A stretch of DNA of 64,000 nt from the NCBI GenBank assembly GCA_965261735.1, contig OZ253470.1:1408001-1472000 (forward strand). The letters run 5' to 3'. The first letter of the stretch is position 1. Each line of letters opens with the position of its first letter. The notes beneath the pieces were generated by a model that saw nothing but the letters and a program-made list of their open reading frames with translations, did no database searches and was not told the DNA's origin. Position numbers and translations under genes: made by a program. Source of the stretch: Alphaproteobacteria bacterium (lineage in GTDB: Bacteria; Pseudomonadota; Alphaproteobacteria; SHVV01). Shown one piece after another: positions 1 to 50,250 of the stretch.

Positions 1-519
1 ACAGGAGACGGGGACCTTGTGGTGAACACCACGGCCTTCCCCACGCGTTCGCCCGCCAACCCAGGTTTCGTCCACCTCAACATGGTTCTTGGGCTGTCCA
101 CCGATCCTGTCTTGGTTGGGCCGCACCATGCCCGAGCGGAGCTTGTGGAGAATTTGAAAGGCCGTCTCGTAGCGCGAAAGACCAAGTTGCCGCTGAAACT
201 GCACGGCGGACATGCCGGGCGTCTGACTGGCGACCAGATAAGCGGCCCAGAACCAGACGTTCAGCGGAGTGTGGCTACGCTCCATCACTGTTCCCACCGT
301 CAGCCCGGTGTTCTAGCGGCACTTGCGGCAGCGCAGGACGCCAGGGCGGTTTTCAAAGTGGAACGGCTCTCCCGCCGTGCCGCAGTGCGGGCAAGCAAAG
401 CCGTCTCCCCAGCGGGCTTTCTCCAGGTAGGCGGCGCAGGCCGCATCATCGGGGAAAAGTCGCTGGAACTCGGGTAGCGAATGCGGGAATGGGAGATCGG
501 CGCGGTCGAGAACATCCAT
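1..519 (-). pseudogene. IS1595 transposase with a premature stop
   Basis: Same N-terminus as 1597..2616 (MDVLDRADLP...CPHC...CRKCR), but the CAG codon of copy 2 is TAG here (313-315). Confidence 0.85.
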
Positions 520-591
520 GGCGCGCTCCCCTATATCCGGTTTGCGCCCATTCTAGCCCTAGTGGGTGTGGGTGTAAACCGGATAGGAAAG
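1..591 (-). mobile_element. IS1595-family element, copy 1 (partial, runs off the window start)
   Basis: Near-identical reverse complement of 1525..2115. Terminus reads CTTTCCTATCCGGTTTAC on the minus strand from 591. Confidence 0.9.
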
Positions 592-1524
592 CTTCGGAGT
601 TCGAGACGCTTTATTCCCACATGGGTCGCCCATCGATCCCGCCGGAGAAGCTTCTTCGAGCGTTACTGTTGCAAGCGTTTTATTCGATCCGCTCGGAGCG
701 TCAGCTGATGGAGCAGCTAAACTTCAACATGCTGTTTTGCTGGTTTGTGGGGCTTGGGCTGGACGATGGCGTGTGGGACGCCAGCGCGTTCTGCCACAAC
801 CGGGACCGTCTTCTGGAGGCGGAGGTTTCGGGGCAGCTGCTTGCGGGGGTTATCCAGCACCACAAGGTAGGGGGACTATTGAGCCGGGATCATTTTTTCG
901 GTAGACGGAACATTGATCGAGGCCTGGGCGTCGATGAAGAGCTTTCGTCCCAAAGGTGAGGACGATGGCGACGGGGGATCGGGGCGCAACGCCGCGCGGG
1001 ATTTTCATGGCGAGAAACGCTCGAACGCGACCCATGCAAGCACCACTGATCCGGACGCCCGGCTTTATCGCAAGGGTAATGGCCGGGAAAGCAAGCTGTG
1101 TTACATGGGCCATGCGCTGACGGAGAACCGCCATGGTCTGGCAGTCGGCGGCGGCGTGACCATTGCGTCGGGCACGGCGGAACGCGAAGCCGCCCTTGAT
1201 CTGATCGACAGGCATCGCCCGGTGGAGAGTAGAGGCGGGCGGCGTCGGATCACGGTGGGCGGGGACAAGGGTTTTGACGTCGCGGATTTTGTCGAGGAAC
1301 TGCGGCACCGCAAGGTGACCCCCCATATCGCCGTCCAGGACCACGTCACCAAGACCGGCAAGCGGCGCAAGACCAAGATAGACGGGCGCACGACGCGCCA
1401 TCCCGGTTACGGCGTCAGCCAACGTTGCCGCAAGCGCATCGAGGAGGTCTTCGGCTGGGTCAAGACGAGCGCGGGATTGAGCAAGACCAAATTCCGGGGC
1501 CGCCACCGGGTCGACGCTTCGTTC

Positions 1525-2629
1525 CTTACCTATCCGGTTTACACCCACACCCACTAGGGCTAGAATGGGCGCAACCCGGATATAGGGGAGCGCGCCATGG
1601 ATGTTCTCGACCGCGCCGATCTCCCATTCCCGCATTCGTTACCCGAGTTCCAGCGACTTTTCCCCGATGATGCGGCCTGCGCCGCCTACCTGGAGAAAGC
1701 CCGCTGGGGAGACGGCTTTGCCTGCCCGCACTGCGGCACGGCGGGAGAGCCGTTCCACTTTGAAAACCGCCCTGGCGTCCTGCGCTGCCGCAAGTGCCGC
1801 CAGAACACCGGGCTGACGGTGGGAACAGTGATGGAGCGTAGCCACACTCCGCTGAACGTCTGGTTCTGGGCCGCTTATCTGGTCGCCAGTCAGACGCCCG
1901 GCATGTCCGCCGTGCAGTTTCAGCGGCAACTTGGTCTTTCGCGCTACGAGACGGCCTTTCAAATTCTCCACAAGCTCCGCTCGGGCATGGTGCGGCCCAA
2001 CCAAGACAGGATCGGTGGACAGCCCAAGAACCATGTTGAGGTGGACGAAACCTGGGTTGGCGGGCGAACGCGTGGGGAAGGCCGTGGTGTTCACCACAAG
2101 GTTCCCGTCTCCTGTGCCATCGAGGTGCGTCATCGAAAGCCGGGCACCAAGCTCGACAACCGGAAAGACGGACGCTATGCCGGACGCGTTCGGCTCGCCG
2201 TCGTGCTCGACCGTAGCGCCGAGTCGCTCTGTGGGTTCGTCGAGAGCACCGTCGCGCCGCGATCGCTGATCGTTACTGACGATTGGAGCGGCTATGCTGG
2301 CCTCGGTAAGCGCGGCTATGAGCACTTCGCTGTTGCCGAGTGTGGTGATCCAGAGGTTGCCGAGCAATACCTGCCGATCATCCATCTGGTTTTCGCCAAC
2401 CTGAAGACGTGGCTGATCGGTATCCACCACGGCGTTAGCCACCAGCACCTACAAGCCTACCTCAACGAGTTCACCTTCCGCTTCAACAGGCGGTTCTACC
2501 CGTTCAACGCCTTCCGCTCATTGCTCGGCATCGCGGGCGACACCTCTGCTCCAACCTATGCCGAGCTTTACTCGGGAGAGTGGCGGCACCCTACATGTAG
2601 CGGTCATGGGCGTTAACCGGATAGGCAAG
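1525..2629 (+). mobile_element. IS1595-family element, copy 2 (complete, 1105 bp)
   Basis: Terminal inverted repeats CTTACCTATCCGGTTTAC and GTTAACCGGATAGGCAAG. Flanks CTTCGTTC (1517-1524) and GATCGTTC (2630-2637) form an imperfect 8-bp target duplication. Confidence 0.92.
1597..2616 (+). CDS. IS1595-family (ISXO2-like) DDE transposase
   Basis: Zn ribbon CPHC...CRKC; VEVDETWVGG; VTDDWSGY; YLNEFTFRFNRR. Confidence 0.93.
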   Translation: MDVLDRADLPFPHSLPEFQRLFPDDAACAAYLEKARWGDGFACPHCGTAGEPFHFENRPGVLRCRKCRQNTGLTVGTVMERSHTPLNVWFWAAYLVASQTPGMSAVQFQRQLGLSRYETAFQILHKLRSGMVRPNQDRIGGQPKNHVEVDETWVGGRTRGEGRGVHHKVPVSCAIEVRHRKPGTKLDNRKDGRYAGRVRLAVVLDRSAESLCGFVESTVAPRSLIVTDDWSGYAGLGKRGYEHFAVAECGDPEVAEQYLPIIHLVFANLKTWLIGIHHGVSHQHLQAYLNEFTFRFNRRFYPFNAFRSLLGIAGDTSAPTYAELYSGEWRHPTCSGHGR

Positions 2630-2699
2630 GATCGTTCACCCTGGCCTTCGCCGCCTACAACCTCGTCCGACTACCCAGACTGCTGGCGGAGGCGCCAAC

Positions 2700-2861
2700 A
2701 TGACGGGCGATGCCGGCACGCCGCTGACCGCAAAGTGGCAGATCATCGAACTGGACGAAGCCCAGGGCATCGGATCGGTCGAGATTGAAGACGGTTTCAC
2801 CCTAAGACACGAAATCTCATTTCATTTCGGCGATGAATCCGAGTTCAAGGCCCGGCAATGA
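2700..2861 (+). CDS. Small 53-aa passenger ORF inside the IS5 right arm, possibly an internally deleted remnant
   Basis: ATGA overlap with the transposase stop. Translation MTGDAGTPLTAKWQIIELDEAQGIGSVEIEDG...FHFGDESEFKARQ. Below the ORF-track cutoff. Confidence 0.45.
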   Translation: MTGDAGTPLTAKWQIIELDEAQGIGSVEIEDGFTLRHEISFHFGDESEFKARQ

Positions 2862-2880
2862 TGACTTTTTCAGCAGCCTG

Positions 2881-3312
2881 CTAGACTACATACTGGCGCT
2901 GCTCGGCCCCTGGGGGTGCCGCCAGATTGGCTACCCACTGTGGGCTAATCTGAATGGGGTGCCGTGGAGCCGCTACGACTTCGGATATCCAACGCCGCCG
3001 CGCTTCGTCAAAGTCGTGGAGAACCCGAACGGATTCGTCCTCCAAGATTGGATCGAAGAGGACAACACACACTATTTGGACGACGTTTTCGAGATCGTCG
3101 GGCGCGGCGACATCAACGACGATGGCCTCGACGACATCATCGTCAGGAGCACGACCGTCTTCTACGATACATTGAGCAGCGATTCCGAGCTTTACCTGGT
3201 CTCGCGCGCCCACGCCGACGATATCCTCCGCGTCGTCGAGGTCTTGAGCCCGCTCGCCAGCGACCGCAACAACTGCGTTCCGGGAACGCTACAGCTGTGG
3301 AAGCCGCGGTAG
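2881..3312 (+). pseudogene. 3' part of a paralogue of the secreted protein at 3535..4395, interrupted by IS5
   Basis: LDYILALLG...ANLNGVPWSRYDFGY...FEIVGRGDINDDGLDDIIV aligns with LDYMPAMLG...ANRDGVPWNRFDFGY...FEIIGRGDFNDDGLDDLLV. Begins exactly at the CTAG target. Confidence 0.85.
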
Positions 3313-3356
3313 GTTGCGGCGGCGCCAGGGCACGACAATCTGGGCGCGGCCCGCGC

Positions 3357-3533
3357 TCATAACAGGACCGGGCCCGCATCGACGGTGAGGGCGGGATTGG
3401 CCGCGCGACCCCACTGGATCACCGGTTTCAGTTCGACCCGCTTCTTGAAGTCGACCCAGCAGGGCTCTGCTTGGCGGCCTCGAGCAGCCGGACGCGCACT
3501 TTCTGGTTGCGTGGTTCGGCGCTAACATCCGGC
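3357..3533 (-). pseudogene. Orphan 3' fragment of a lysozyme-like gene paralogous to 4440..5420
   Basis: Minus strand reads PDVSAEPRNQKVRVRLLEAAKQ, then a 1-bp gap, then PCWVDFKKRVELKPVIQWGRAANPALTVDAGPVLL*. The intact gene reads ...AERNDKTREWLLEAAKQEPCWVDFKKRVQLKPVIQWGRAANPDLTIDPGPILL*. Confidence 0.85.
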
Positions 3534-3534
3534 C

Positions 3535-4395
3535 ATGGCGCGCACTCGAATCATAGCCGTTCTAGCCTGGGCGCTCTGCGTATGCGCCGGCGTCCTGTCC
3601 GCCTCGGCTGCCGCCCAGCGCTACCCGGTGTGGTGGGCGCCGGAGATCGGGATCGCGAGCCTCGACGAGATCGACGCGCTGCTCGCCAAGCCGTTTGCCG
3701 AAGAGCACCGCCACTGGCTCTACAAGTTTGAGTACAGGGGAAGGTGGGAGTCGCCCTTCGTCGACCAGCAGCCGATCGACGACTGCCTGTCGTTGTTCGA
3801 GCGGCTGGCGGCCGGCTACGAGTCAGGTGTCGAAGATCGGGACGAGCTGCTGGCCTACCGCCGCACCTATCCTCGGTGCTACGCCCTGCTTGCGCTCAAG
3901 CGGGCCAAGCCGGCGAGAGTGAGCTACGTGCGCGACTTCGTCATGGACGCGAACACCCTCGATTACATGCCGGCGATGCTCGGCTACTGGTGGTGCAGTC
4001 CCCGCTCGTACCCGCAGGTCGTACGAGCGAACCGCGACGGCGTTCCGTGGAACCGCTTCGATTTTGGCTACGAATCCGGGTGGGGCTACCGGGTGGGCGT
4101 GGTGAAGAACCGCAACGTCTTCGTTCTTCAGACGTGGGCCGAGGACCACGGTCGCCGCTACGATGAAATATTCGAGATCATTGGCCGCGGGGATTTCAAC
4201 GATGACGGTCTGGACGACCTCCTCGTACGCGTGACGGTCGCCGATCATCCTCCTGAGGACGTTATTTCGGAGCTGTTCCTGCTGTCGCGGGTCCATACCG
4301 ACAGCGTACTTCGCGTTGCCGCGATCCTGAGCCCCTTGGACAACGAACGCAACCGCTGCGCGCCGGGGCCCGACGAGCTGTGGAGACGGCGATAA
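3535..4395 (+). CDS. Exported hypothetical protein with an FG-GAP-like Ca-binding loop; candidate immunity protein
   Basis: Signal peptide MARTRIIAVLAWALCVCAGVLSASAAA; GDFNDDGLDDLLV motif; a paralogue lies upstream. Confidence 0.8.
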   Translation: MARTRIIAVLAWALCVCAGVLSASAAAQRYPVWWAPEIGIASLDEIDALLAKPFAEEHRHWLYKFEYRGRWESPFVDQQPIDDCLSLFERLAAGYESGVEDRDELLAYRRTYPRCYALLALKRAKPARVSYVRDFVMDANTLDYMPAMLGYWWCSPRSYPQVVRANRDGVPWNRFDFGYESGWGYRVGVVKNRNVFVLQTWAEDHGRRYDEIFEIIGRGDFNDDGLDDLLVRVTVADHPPEDVISELFLLSRVHTDSVLRVAAILSPLDNERNRCAPGPDELWRRR

Positions 4396-4439
4396 CTTGC
4401 ATCAACGCTAACGCAAGGCAAACTCGGCGCGGCCCACAC

Positions 4440-5420
4440 TCACAGCAGGATCGGGCCCGGGTCGATGGTGAGGTCGGGGTTCGCCGCCCTGCCCCACTGG
4501 ATCACCGGTTTCAATTGCACCCGCTTCTTGAAGTCGACCCAGCAGGGCTCCTGCTTGGCCGCCTCGAGCAGCCATTCGCGGGTCTTGTCGTTCCTCTCGG
4601 CTTGAGCCTGTGTGCGATGTGACAGCGCCGCCGCCCGCTTCCAATTCCTCGTATTGACCGCCTTGCCGAATTTCCCCTCTTGATGGTCTTCCGCACCCTT
4701 GGCGCCCAGCTGGTAGGCCATGTCGAGGACCGCGAGCTTGGCTTCGTGGGGGTACGTGTCGAAAGCGCTGAATTCCTTCCGTCTCCTGACCTCTTTGATC
4801 TTTATGTCGATATCTATTAGGGCGAGTTCTATGGCCCTGTTCTCTCTGATCTCGGCCTCGGTTTCGCTGTGGGCTAGCCACGGCTTGTTTACTTCGCCCT
4901 GGTGCGTGACTCTCGCGAAATCGTCGCTTAGGACCTTGTCCGAGGCCGGCGCGCCGCCCACCTTGAGCACGAAGTAGTCGCGTAGGCGATGCGCCTCCCC
5001 GACATCGGGGAGCCAATGGCCGAAGCCGACGGTCATCTCGCCGCCCCCGTCGAGGTGCATGAAGCCGATGTAGTTGCCGCGGTAGTTTTCCACCCCTTTT
5101 AGGTGTTCCAGGAGCTCGTTCACGTAGTCCTTGTGTTCGGGCGCGGTCATGTCGCGGCTGAAGGTCTCCTGGCTGAAGTCGATGAAGGGGTGGCAGGTGT
5201 CGGATTTGACGAGGATCTCCTTGTTGCCCGCGGGCGCCACCGCCCAGCGCGCCGCGCCGAGGCGGAGTAGCTCCTCGGCGAGCACGGCTCGCGGGGTCGC
5301 GCGCGCCTTGAGCAGCGCGACCTGCTCGATGCGCTCGCAGAACTGGCGCGCCCAGGCGGGTCCGCCGAGCTTCGCCGCCTTGCACTCGATGTCCGCGCGG
5401 GTGGGATCGCCTGCCGTCAT
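4440..5420 (-). CDS. Lysozyme-like (GH24/T4-type muramidase) domain protein with N- and C-terminal extensions
   Basis: E...FMHLDGGGEMTVGFGH resembles the E-x-D-x-T GH24 motif. FDTYP...AVLDMAYQLG...KF.KAV...NW..AA resembles the T4-lysozyme-like C-lobe. GGAG RBS upstream. Confidence 0.72.
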   Translation of the reverse strand: MTAGDPTRADIECKAAKLGGPAWARQFCERIEQVALLKARATPRAVLAEELLRLGAARWAVAPAGNKEILVKSDTCHPFIDFSQETFSRDMTAPEHKDYVNELLEHLKGVENYRGNYIGFMHLDGGGEMTVGFGHWLPDVGEAHRLRDYFVLKVGGAPASDKVLSDDFARVTHQGEVNKPWLAHSETEAEIRENRAIELALIDIDIKIKEVRRRKEFSAFDTYPHEAKLAVLDMAYQLGAKGAEDHQEGKFGKAVNTRNWKRAAALSHRTQAQAERNDKTREWLLEAAKQEPCWVDFKKRVQLKPVIQWGRAANPDLTIDPGPILL

Positions 5421-5452
5421 GGTTCTTCTCCGTCAATCTTGATGCGCCACCC

Positions 5453-6470
5453 TCAGCGGATGGCGCGGCCGATGGGGCCGTTGCGCAGGATGTCGTCGAG
5501 GATCGCGGCCTTGGTGCGGGCGATGATGCGGTCGCCCTCGGTACGTAGCACGGCGACCGCCGCCGGGCTCGCGCCGCGGAAGTCGAAGTTGAAGGTCTGG
5601 TGGAAGTTGACGACGGTGCGGGCGGTTGCCGCAGCGGCGCGCCCTGCGCCCGCGAGCCGGTTGTGGGGCACGATGGCGCCGGCGGCGGCGGGCACGAAAA
5701 GCTCGGGCCCCGCCTCGCCCACGAGATAGGGGATGCGGGGCAGCACCGGCCTGCCGTGCTGCTTGCCGAAGATACCGGTGAGGCCGCCCCTGAGCAGCTC
5801 CGAGATCGGCGCGACGACGCCGGTGCGGAGCATGTCGCTCGCGATGTCGTCGAGGATGCTCGAGGCGATGTCGCGCAGGCGCTTGAACTCGAACTCGTTC
5901 GACCGCACCATGTCGCCGGACCGCGCGGGTCACGCGGCCCATGCCGCGCTCCATGATGGTCGTGACGGCACCCACGGCCTCAGCGACGGGTCCCACCATC
6001 GCCGCATCGAGCTGGCCGAACGTCCCGTTGATGGCGTCGAGCGTCGCGGGCATGGATTTGTCGATATCCTCTTGGAGCTTGCGAAAGGCCACGCTCGCCG
6101 CCGTGGTGTCCACCTGTACGCCCTTCAGGGTCTCGCGCAGGGGCTCGTACACCGCCTCGGTGTCCCGCCGCAGGCCCTTCAGGGACTCGCGCAGGGACTC
6201 GCGCGCCGCCTCCAAACCCTCCGTCGGGATCCGAGGAACGTGCGCGTTGCCCGTAGCGCCACCGGGGGCGTCCGCCGTTTCCGCCTTGCGGCCCGGCAGC
6301 TTGAGGCCGGCGAGGCCCTGGCGCAGACCCGCCAGGCTTTCGCGCAGGGGCGCCAGCGGCGCCTTGATCTTCTCGACCGCCTGGGCGACCATCTTGTGCG
6401 CCCGGTCCAAGTCCGCGCCGAGGCGCGGCGTATCCACCACGAATTTTATTAGAAACTCATCGTTTGCCAT
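5453..6470 (-). pseudogene. Short phage tail tape-measure-like protein, split by a 1-bp frameshift (about 5918-5919)
   Basis: ATG at 6470 with AGGAG RBS (MANDEFLIKFVVDTPRLGADLDRA); helical Ala/Leu-rich body; second frame carries HGRPV...YLVGEAGPELFVP, typical of tape-measure C-termini. May be intact if the indel is a sequencing error. Confidence 0.68.
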
Positions 6471-6579
6471 CGTTGCTCCTGCTCGCGGCGCATCCGCGTG
6501 CGCCCGATCATTCCGTTCTCCCGGCGCTCTCGATGCCCTCGTTCTATCAACCCGAACAACCGCGGGCCTGATCACTCAT

Positions 6580-6648
6580 TGATACGTTCGGTGTCCTATC
6601 GTGATGCGCATGATACGTTGCGCATCGCATAATGTCTATATCTTGTGC
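6580..6648. promoter_or_regulatory. Putative operator region upstream of the tape-measure-like gene
   Basis: Inverted repeat GATGCGCA-N8-TGCGCATC (6603-6626); direct repeat TGATACGTT at 6580 and 6611; locally AT-rich. Confidence 0.4.
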
Positions 6649-48059: not shown

Positions 48060-48133
48060 TGGAGCGGGTGAGGGGAATCGAACCCCCGTCGTAAGCTTGG
48101 GAAGCTTCTGCTCTGCCATTGAGCTACACCCGC
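48060..48133 (-). tRNA. tRNA-Gly (CCC)
   Basis: GCGGGTGTAGCTCAATGGCAGAGC...TTCCCAA...GGTTCGATTCC...CACCCGCTCCA; 74 nt, CCA encoded. Confidence 0.96.
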
Positions 48134-50119: not shown

Positions 50120-50149
50120 TTGACCACGACGAGCACGCGCGCGCATAGT
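50120..50149 (+). promoter_or_regulatory. Possible sigma70 promoter of the metZ leader
   Basis: TTGACC-N18-CATAGT just upstream of the riboswitch. Confidence 0.45.
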
Positions 50150-50154
50150 CGCGC

Positions 50155-50212
50155 ATTCGTGGTGATTTGAGCCGACCGGCTTGCGACCACGCTAAACAAA
50201 CGCTAAAAGGTC
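50155..50212 (+). ncRNA. SAM-alpha (SAM-II type) riboswitch
   Basis: CGTGGTGATTTGAGCCGACCGGCTTGCGACCACGCTAAACAAACGCTAAA fits the alphaproteobacterial SAM-II pattern; lies upstream of a methionine biosynthesis gene. Confidence 0.88.
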
Positions 50213-50218
50213 GGAGGG

Positions 50219-50250
50219 CAAAAACCCCGGCCGCGCGGCCGGGGTTTTTG
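50219..50250 (+). terminator. Intrinsic terminator-like hairpin in the metZ leader
   Basis: Perfect 32-bp palindrome CAAAAACCCCGGCCGCGCGGCCGGGGTTTTTG ending in a T run. Confidence 0.75.

Follow-up and report, generated by a model that had tools for sequence, protein, structure and literature searches.

The left end of a 64,000-nucleotide stretch of alphaproteobacterial DNA (Alphaproteobacteria bacterium, GenBank assembly GCA_965261735.1, contig OZ253470.1), which corresponds to positions 1408001-1472000 of a 5.03-Mb single-contig genome and is referred to below as the window, carries a lysozyme-like gene, lys, that converges on a gene for an exported protein, exp. Comparison of this locus with its paralogues and with loci of other genomes indicates that lys and exp are a conserved unit, which probably encodes a muramidase of the GH24 superfamily and its periplasmic immunity protein and is supplemented with spare immunity cassettes. 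A toxin-and-antidote module with spare antidote copies is the most likely explanation because distant bacteria keep the two genes paired, and the roles of muramidase and periplasmic inhibitor are suggested by the fold and active-site positions of lys, the export signal of exp and the linkage of the two genes across phyla in two orientations. An original prediction, made from the sequence of the window, had described the lysozyme/exported protein pair and a repeat containing parts of both genes, and interpreted them as an array of a toxin and its immunity genes with a phage tape-measure-like partner; the observation is confirmed and the interpretation is partly supported.

Organization of the locus

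As predicted, the lys open reading frame (ORF; 4440..5420, minus strand, 326 aa) converges on exp (3535..4395, plus strand, 286 aa in the ORF map), whose product has a signal-peptide-like N terminus, and the two stop codons are separated by a 44-bp spacer (4396..4439). From left to right, the locus comprises a nest of insertion sequences (ISs; 1..2880), the C-terminal half of a second exp paralogue, or orphan copy (2881..3312, plus strand, within the 159-aa ORF 2833-3312), a remnant of the last ~45 codons of a second lys gene (3357..3490, minus strand; 88% nucleotide identity to 4473-4562), exp, the spacer, lys and a tape-measure-like gene (5453..6470, minus strand), to the right of which lie ftsY and other house-keeping genes. 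The G+C content is 59-72% at positions 1-6500 versus 67-77% further right in the window.

The block formed by exp, the spacer and the 3' end of lys had been reported to recur with an exact 1083-bp period. The stop codons of the two copies lie where they had been placed (3310-3312 and 4393-4395 on the plus strand, 3357-3359 and 4440-4442 on the minus strand), but the exact spacing is limited to a gap-free repeat of ~285 nt (3183-3467 versus 4266-4550, 75% identity): it becomes 1084 to the right (3467-3496 versus 4551-4580) and 1077 to the left (2881 versus 3958), and homology is lost at ~3490/4573. The copies are diverged, as had been noted, and unevenly so, with nucleotide identities of 60-67% in the exp gene, 72% over the stop codons and spacer and 88% in the lysozyme tail; the tblastn matches between them are well beyond chance (E 7e-38 for exp and 3e-15 for the lysozyme tail). 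A bidirectional terminator in the spacers was considered and rejected, since a terminator scan gave nothing there and neither 3292-3382 nor 4375-4465, folded as either strand, formed a hairpin better than those of shuffled controls (z -0.7 to +0.5). Small metatranscriptome contigs from three runs of one study match the locus error-free over 4440-4671 and 3867-4024 and with one mismatch over 5495-5661; RNA libraries can hold DNA, and these contigs carry neither level nor strand, so that they are no proof of transcription, just as their gaps are not informative.

The lysozyme-like protein

The muramidase fold anticipated for lys was recovered by modelling. The AlphaFold2 model, built from 62 sequences (mean predicted local distance difference test score, pLDDT, 90.4; predicted template-modelling score 0.86), comprises a ~95-aa N-terminal domain, a predicted T4-lysozyme-fold (GH24) domain at residues 95-290 and a C-terminal tail. 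A Foldseek search with this model gave 175 matches at E <= 0.001, starting from E 6.7e-5; the best 50 of the 175 are T4 lysozyme or its chimeras, mostly T4-lysozyme fusions, and among the plain T4 lysozyme entries the best reached E 1.9e-4 and a template-modelling score of 0.64 on the target. VIA-align superimposed model residues 101-288 on T4 lysozyme with Z 13.4 (range 13-14), a root-mean-square deviation of 2.7 and 148 aligned residues, followed by a phage baseplate lysozyme chain (9f4a_BB, Z 12.3), the DLP12 endolysin (Z 12.0), P22 lysozyme (Z 11.5), the SpmX muramidase domain (6h9d_A, Z 10.6), pesticin (Z 10.6, 173 residues) and SagA (7dnp_A, Z 7.1), all these likenesses falling within residues 95-290. 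A profile of 13 members of the long form of the family, which has the additional N-terminal domain, matched T4 lysozyme among PDB sequences with E 1.2e-10 and laid the E/D/T positions on E11, D20 and T26; the corresponding E111, D124 and T130 are invariant in 13/13 members. The modelled fold of lys is thus of the T4-lysozyme type, with the catalytic positions conserved.

By sequence, the family is harder to recognize. The window protein matches neither Pfam Phage_lysozyme (PF00959) nor Pesticin (PF16754), three of seven close family members match Phage_lysozyme (best E 0.0046), and the PHROG endolysin family phrog_7 is matched by 7/13 long-form members. Six relatives emerged from a word-index search of 5.8 billion proteins, and a profile of seven members, run on 1.84 billion representatives, retrieved 3114 proteins at E <= 0.001. 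When Pfam was run on 34 of the best 150 profile relatives, 22 matched Phage_lysozyme at E <= 0.01, 18 of the 34 above the cut-off; one of the 34 is fused to an extracellular contractile injection system (eCIS) core domain and one to LysM/M23. We conclude that lys is a divergent branch of the GH24 superfamily and not a Pfam-recognized member of it.

Neither a signal peptide nor a membrane anchor was found in lys, the helices of the model belonging to a compact soluble fold. The N-terminal domain is modelled as a compact helix/strand structure (pLDDT 90-98 after residue 10) and is conserved across phyla in the long form; a search of the ESM Atlas with residues 1-100 returned no usable match, and inspection revealed no TonB-box-like start.

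The exported protein

The N terminus of exp, examined by inspection, is basic, then hydrophobic, then Ala-rich, and ends in AxA; similar signal-peptide-like N termini occur across the family and are lipoprotein-like in its distant members. The exported nature proposed for the partner of lys is upheld by this N terminus and by the conserved cysteines: W33, W34, C84, C115 and an RGDxxxDxxxDL loop (R218-L229), which contributes to the motif GRGDFNxDGLDDLL, are invariant in the family alignment, and C154 is nearly so. No Pfam or NCBIfam family covers exp, the FG-GAP motif scoring 14.7 bits, below its cut-off of 22.1. The AlphaFold2 model (14 sequences) has a pLDDT of 79.8, with residues 1-32 below 50; Foldseek returned nothing for it at E <= 0.001, and VIA-align reached at most Z 5.0 among 48,161 chains, with no MliC/PliC chain among the structural matches listed; in PDB sequences, the exp profile found only the Asp-rich motif of integrins, at E ~0.6. 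A word-index search yielded 12 relatives, and the near clusters in the ESM Atlas are all annotated as 'hypothetical protein'; FG-GAP occurs in 23% of the members of one such cluster. A predicted complex of lys (residues 1-316) with mature exp (28-286) scored 0.11 against a mark of 0.32, which speaks neither for nor against binding. The exp products are, accordingly, an uncharacterized protein family without an assignable fold and predicted to be periplasmic. Our literature searches, which were few and keyword-bound, retrieved no description of this family or of its convergent layout with GH24 enzymes.

Linkage of lys and exp in other genomes

Both families are rare: lys was found in one of seven other genomes of the taxonomic family, and exp in none of 400 other genomes sampled from the phylum (E <= 1e-5). 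A scan of 185,579 species genomes with patterns derived from the exp alignment produced 16 loci, whose labels, those of metagenome-assembled genomes (MAGs), include Alpha- and Gammaproteobacteria, Acidobacteria and one Saccharibacteria. Six-frame hidden Markov model searches detected a lys-family match at 13 of these 16 loci, nine convergent with exp (L031-L038 and L040, with another gene or an IS in between in L036 and L040) and four co-directional (L039, L041 and L042 with lys first, L043 with a Pesticin-domain gene first), and none in L044-L046. Among five metagenome loci found through lys, three carry a convergent exp 46-60 bp away, one of them, L050, in an array; the other two, which matched through the lysozyme domain only, have no exp. 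Thus, the co-occurrence of homologues expected by the original prediction holds at most loci of this gene-neighbourhood survey, for which Pfam was run on 135 flanking ORFs.

Two of the co-directional loci are informative about function. In L042, from a gammaproteobacterial MAG, a gene for Hcp (7.5e-29) is followed by a 205-aa lysozyme and by exp, and Hcp, effector, immunity is the textbook order of effector-immunity genes of type VI secretion systems (T6SSs). In L043 (382-2520, Cellvibrionaceae MAG), a 188-aa protein that consists of a Pesticin domain alone (2.7e-45) is followed by two lipoprotein genes, of which one has an exp-family match and the other the Asp-rich motif only. The Hcp-linked and Pesticin-domain versions therefore lead to the same reading of lys and exp as a muramidase and its inhibitor. 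Separately, in L045 (171-5956), a distant exp relative lies directly upstream of genes for TrwB, a coupling protein of conjugation, and the relaxase TrwC on a contig that begins 170 bp before it; the 5.9 kb of this locus hold no lysozyme.

Paralogous copies and a recurrent recombination junction

About nine lys/exp loci were identified in the genome by tblastn, profile searches and ORF maps. Four lys genes are intact, at locus A (the window), locus B (genome positions 977647-978627, 53% identical to that of the window), locus C (2916484-2917464, 98%) and locus F (3315629-3316522, 35%), among ~12 copies and fragments many of which are cut by ISs or frameshifted, and the lys/exp system is decaying in this genome. 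Nevertheless, an exp gene or fragment stands tail-to-tail with lys at 11 of the 12 lys 3' ends, with an IS element in between in two of these cases. IS1595, IS5, IS630-like and IS256-like elements also interrupt several of the loci outside the window.

Orphan modules of a lys tail and an exp gene are present at loci A, B, E, F and H and at the foreign locus L040, the lys fragments comprising only the last 30-60 codons and no catalytic domain. The original prediction had seen in the window an orphan module made of a toxin 3' fragment and an immunity-like gene; this description suits the lys tail and exp at all five loci of the genome, but the left exp of the window is not a 3' fragment by origin. 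It is a whole paralogue, residues 1-142 of which are encoded at genome positions 1406626-1407051, ~950 bp before the window begins (E 4e-64 and 78% identity with the live copy), and residues 139-286 at window positions 2872-3309 (49.7%, E 7e-38; both by tblastn). Inspection of the sequence left of the window, suggested earlier as a way of finding more cassettes, supplied the missing half of this gene, and the ORF map showed no further cassettes left of it. Between the two halves lies an IS5-family element that was itself struck by two IS1595 copies. The first ~17 residues of ORF 2833-3312 represent IS end sequence, as they recur at many sites of the genome with up to 100% identity. The orphan lysozyme remnant differs from the live gene by a 1-nt indel and contains one in-frame stop, with 86% identity over 36 aa in tblastn and a profile match at E 6.7e-18.

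The IS5-family element is inserted at codon ~142 of the exp paralogue, and the IS nest spans genome positions 1407052-1410880. Within the window, it consists of an inverted partial IS1595 copy (1-591), pieces of the IS5-family element (~489-1557 and 2635-2880) and a whole IS1595 (inverted repeats 1520-1556 and 2598-2634; transposase 1597-2616). The two IS1595 copies are inverted, their arms at 1-591 and 1525-2115 being 99% complementary, and the Pfam matches of the nest are DDE_Tnp_IS1595 (1.4e-36), DDE_Tnp_1 (3e-14) and DUF772 (1.1e-23).

The four-part layout of the window is repeated at locus B, where the orphan exp is nearest to the window orphan (74%) and the main exp to the main exp of the window (69%); because orphan matches orphan and main matches main, the layout predates the split of the two loci. 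Between A and B, lys (53%) is more diverged than exp (69%). A different pattern was found in the comparison of loci A and C: identity is 100% for each 60-nt window between 4571 and ~5410, i.e., over lys codons 1 to ~283, and left of 4571 drops to 87%, 77% and then 62-85% through the tail, spacer and exp (63-87% overall). This edge coincides with the right end of the 1083-bp repeat (~4573). Since identity breaks at codon ~283, the body of lys and the block of exp, spacer and lys tail have separate histories, and this codon (4571..4573) is a recurrent recombination junction. As expected of a two-copy repeat, the assembly contigs of run X4 break at 4543-4548 and 5421.

In contact-dependent inhibition (CDI) and Rhs systems, orphan modules form arrays of immunity genes, each with a toxin 3' fragment, and a fixed recombination point lies within the toxin gene. 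The lys/exp loci share the immunity arrays, the toxin 3' fragments and the fixed junction. They differ in that the fragment is the non-catalytic tail only and the genes are convergent, so that the immunity gene is swapped and not the toxic domain; orphan fragments as toxin-swapping modules of the CDI/Rhs type were rejected for the absence of the catalytic domain.

The tape-measure-like gene

The gene located 32 nt upstream of lys on the same strand had been regarded as the second member of a two-gene unit. In the window, a surplus base at ~5918-5919 splits it into two frames, 5453-5911 (minus strand, 152 aa) and a second one that extends to the ATG at 6470, as judged by alignment to an intact 334-aa paralogue at genome positions 3943492-3944496 (locus D). 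The intact copy matches Pfam Tape_meas_lam_C with 23.9 bits (cut-off 23), phrog_30701 at 3.4e-13 and tape-measure PHROGs from 6.2e-6; the window copy is matched weakly and in its C-terminal part only. A length of 334 aa is far below that of a typical tape-measure protein. The gene appears to be whole elsewhere, since databases contain proteins of 338 aa, the length to which the two window frames add up. The proximity to lys is real, but the gene is not part of the conserved unit: homologues were found at 0/23 loci from other genomes, and the three copies of this genome are intact in D, frameshifted in the window and degraded in C, where the gene also lies beside lys. An obligate partnership was rejected on these counts, the link being confined to this lineage. 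Direct repeats of 48-54 nt at 6078-6364 (three copies, 73-100% identity) encode a repeated helical motif, '...L(R/K)ESL(K/A)GL...', and a sigma-70-like promoter match (TAGACA-17-TATCAT, 10/12; a consensus match only) lies upstream of the gene at 6610..6638 on the minus strand.

Alternative functions

The main rival to the toxin-and-antidote module is that lys is a virion- or tail-associated lysin, made late, of a phage or gene transfer agent (GTA)-like particle, and exp a moron-like periplasmic exclusion partner shielding lysogens or kin, in which case the loci of this genome would be remnants of such elements and the tape-measure-like gene would derive from a tail module. The idea of an inhibitor is common to both explanations and the purpose differs. 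The precedent is Spackle, a periplasmic protein that blocks the T4 tail lysozyme gp5 encoded by the same element, according to PMC7677548. Such a role would fit the resemblance of the lys model to the baseplate lysozyme chain, the tape-measure-like gene upstream of lys at the window and locus C, and the four of nine convergent loci with phage-like head-tail genes on the lysozyme strand: L031 (capsid, 3.9e-86, and a gp6-like connector), L035 (portal, 3.1e-71, the stop of which abuts the lysozyme start), L036 (an HK97 gp10-like gene) and L037 (tail tube, 2.7e-34, DUF6950 and Phage-tail_3). Other observations speak against it. The remaining loci lie between house-keeping genes, those of this genome and of L033, L034, L038, L040, L050 and L051 being two-gene islets; among 2.9 million viral contigs, a short-pattern search, which is not proof of absence, yielded nothing related to exp and for lys a single weak match (L048); the tape-measure-like gene has no homologue at the 23 loci of other genomes; the genome itself holds only degenerate capsid/protease pieces and two weak portal matches; and the Hcp-linked and Pesticin-domain versions suit antagonism better. 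We therefore consider a phage or GTA lysin unlikely.

Two observations belong to these phage-like sequences. In L035 (6009-9514, Rhodospirillales MAG), the portal domain occupies residues 103-435 of an 850-aa ORF, ~400 residues of which are without assignment. At genome positions 2230096-2231453 (L054:14096-15453), a degenerate HK97-type capsid (25.8 bits), the sole capsid match in the genome, and prohead protease fragments are flanked by IS256-type and IS1595 transposases.

It is improbable that lys is a house-keeping autolysin that opens the wall of its own cell locally, e.g., for an envelope-spanning machine, and is restrained by exp. The host is an alphaproteobacterium, the lys model matches both the alphaproteobacterial SpmX domain and SagA, and PMC8334348 describes, in Brucella, SagA as a GH24-like muramidase with a transmembrane region and PhiA, a beta-barrel of the MliC/PliC type, as its proposed periplasmic inhibitor, for which the authors saw no direct binding or inhibition. 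Unlike SagA, lys has no signal peptide or membrane anchor, and exp is larger than PhiA and has no listed MliC/PliC match; both families have a rare and patchy distribution, and the multi-copy, IS-ridden and partly pseudogenized loci with arrays and orphans are a signature of accessory conflict genes. Finally, the slightly less probable notion that the two genes have no functional link, being accessory genes in mobile debris with a plain segmental duplication and exp serving another role (an adhesin-like Ca-binding protein or a receptor), would suit a region packed with IS elements and the FG-GAP-like Asp-rich loop, the sole motif of exp, but adjacency kept at 30-35% protein identity within the genome and in alphaproteobacterial, gammaproteobacterial and acidobacterial MAGs, in two orientations, is hard to obtain without selection for linkage.

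Proposed mechanism and points against it

Under the toxin-and-antidote explanation, lys would be made without a signal peptide and exp, encoded tail-to-tail with it, would be exported by Sec and act as a dedicated inhibitor, or putative immunity protein, of lys, presumably by binding. The lysozyme would serve as an antibacterial weapon against the cell wall of cells that lack the matching inhibitor. Its ~95-aa N-terminal domain is a candidate delivery or targeting part. Additional exp genes, each with a short lys 3' remnant, would constitute arrays of spare immunity cassettes, reshuffled by recombination at the fixed point near lys codon 283. The short lys tails may have been left behind by unequal crossing-over and homogenized by conversion, or they may be functional elements of the cassettes, their conserved DNA possibly acting as a recombination arm or as a cassette 3' untranslated region or promoter. 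As a tentative extension, the long form of lys may represent a new class of cell-wall toxins delivered without a T6SS or a type IV secretion system (T4SS), perhaps by carriage in phage- or GTA-like particles or by release and import in the manner of a bacteriocin, exp a new family of periplasmic immunity proteins to GH24 enzymes that extends across phyla, and the exp-spacer-tail unit a true recombination cassette, exchanged at codon ~283, that shuffles and stockpiles immunity and not toxin.

Several observations weigh against this explanation. The distance from E111 to D124 of lys is 13 residues versus nine in T4 lysozyme and paralogue F, with four extra residues after the Glu, and the stretch 111-120 that contains this insertion has a pLDDT of 69, for which reasons the activity of lys is not assured. 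The spacing E-x8-D-x5-T is kept in paralogue F and most relatives, the four extra residues are shared by the window protein and paralogue B, and in one alignment the four-residue-longer forms have a Gly in the column of the canonical Glu. By itself, the window protein went unmatched in Pfam, PHROGs and NCBIfam at E <= 0.1 and in PDB sequences. The compact and conserved N-terminal domain is unlike the variable receptor-binding or disordered translocation parts of colicin-type bacteriocins, and exp resembles no solved immunity protein or lysozyme inhibitor, such as MliC/PliC/PhiA, Ivy, Tsi3 or Spackle, in Foldseek, VIA-align (both with the model of pLDDT 79.8) or profile searches of PDB sequences. 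No match to a T6SS sheath or Hcp, to VirB4 or to a GTA-type tail tube was found in this genome (secretion families PF05943, PF05638 and PF03135 searched), and a link to a secretion apparatus at the foreign loci is provided by the Hcp gene of L042 in one of 16. The identical lys bodies of loci A and C have exp partners that share only 59% identity, and at locus C (L027) the exp partner of the intact lys, 98% identical in protein, is truncated by an IS256-like transposase. Hence, either specificity is loose or lys is harmless to its producer.

Two further features of the window, a tRNA-Gly(CCC) gene at 48060-48133 and a SAM-alpha riboswitch at 50149-50226 (62.5 bits), are ordinary and of use only in placing the organism, which the riboswitch marks as an alphaproteobacterium.

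Comparison with known systems

The original prediction had not recognized the architecture as a described system and had set its convergent orientation apart from known arrays. Pesticin and T6SS effectors already provide examples of lysozyme-type toxins with periplasmic immunity, and colicins B and M provide a precedent for convergent immunity genes. Pesticin, a T4-lysozyme-like bacteriocin of Yersinia pestis, is a muramidase neutralized by the periplasmic protein Pim and is similar to lys/exp in that it combines the fold, an extra N-terminal part and periplasmic immunity with the lack of a signal peptide and of a lysis gene (PMC3390615). The likeness is reinforced by L043, which pairs a true Pesticin-domain protein with an exp relative. 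In contrast to pesticin, the N-terminal ~95 aa of lys are compact and conserved, with no TonB box and receptor-binding domain by inspection, and exp, with ~260 aa in its mature form, has no detected likeness to solved proteins. The immunity genes cbi and cmi of colicins B and M lie downstream of the toxin gene but are encoded by the opposite strand and have their own promoters, and colicin M has a cell-wall target, acts in the periplasm and lacks a lysis gene (PMC8469651); the layout is that of lys/exp, in which the putative toxin likewise has no signal peptide. Colicins B and M differ from lys by their activities (pore formation and lipid II cleavage, respectively), by being plasmid-borne and SOS-controlled and by TonB-dependent import domains, none of which is shown for lys.

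Among T6SS effectors, TssI2 is a VgrG-fused pesticin-domain effector with the periplasmic immunity protein TsiI2, which PMC9620997 describes as expressed in the form of residues 19-127, and Tse3-Tsi3 pairs a peptidoglycan-glycoside-hydrolase effector with a periplasmic immunity protein (PMC3792639). These systems share with lys/exp a lysozyme-like effector and an adjacent gene for periplasmic immunity, most closely in L042 with its order of Hcp, short lysozyme and exp. They differ in that the present genome has no sheath or Hcp match and the long form has an additional N-terminal domain and converges with its partner; exp is roughly twice as large as TsiI2. The pair of gp5 and Spackle is similarly composed of a GH24 lysozyme and a periplasmic inhibitor, and some long-form loci lie in head-tail modules, whereas lys is not fused to a spike or hub and exp has no relative among the viral contigs searched.

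Implications

Against this background, the features not described before, within the searchable literature, are the exp partner family, the N-terminal domain of the long form and the cassette structure with its fixed junction. The exp family accompanies GH24 lysozymes in different phyla and delivery contexts, whether the lysozyme gene follows Hcp, encodes a Pesticin domain, lies in a phage-like module or stands alone. The arrays and the fixed junction provide a testable model of how a repertoire of immunity genes is built. The presence of the conserved N-terminal domain in genomes without the usual injection machines points to an undescribed route by which a wall-cutting enzyme may enter a neighbouring cell, and, if the proposed function is true, exp would be a new natural inhibitor of T4-type lysozymes.

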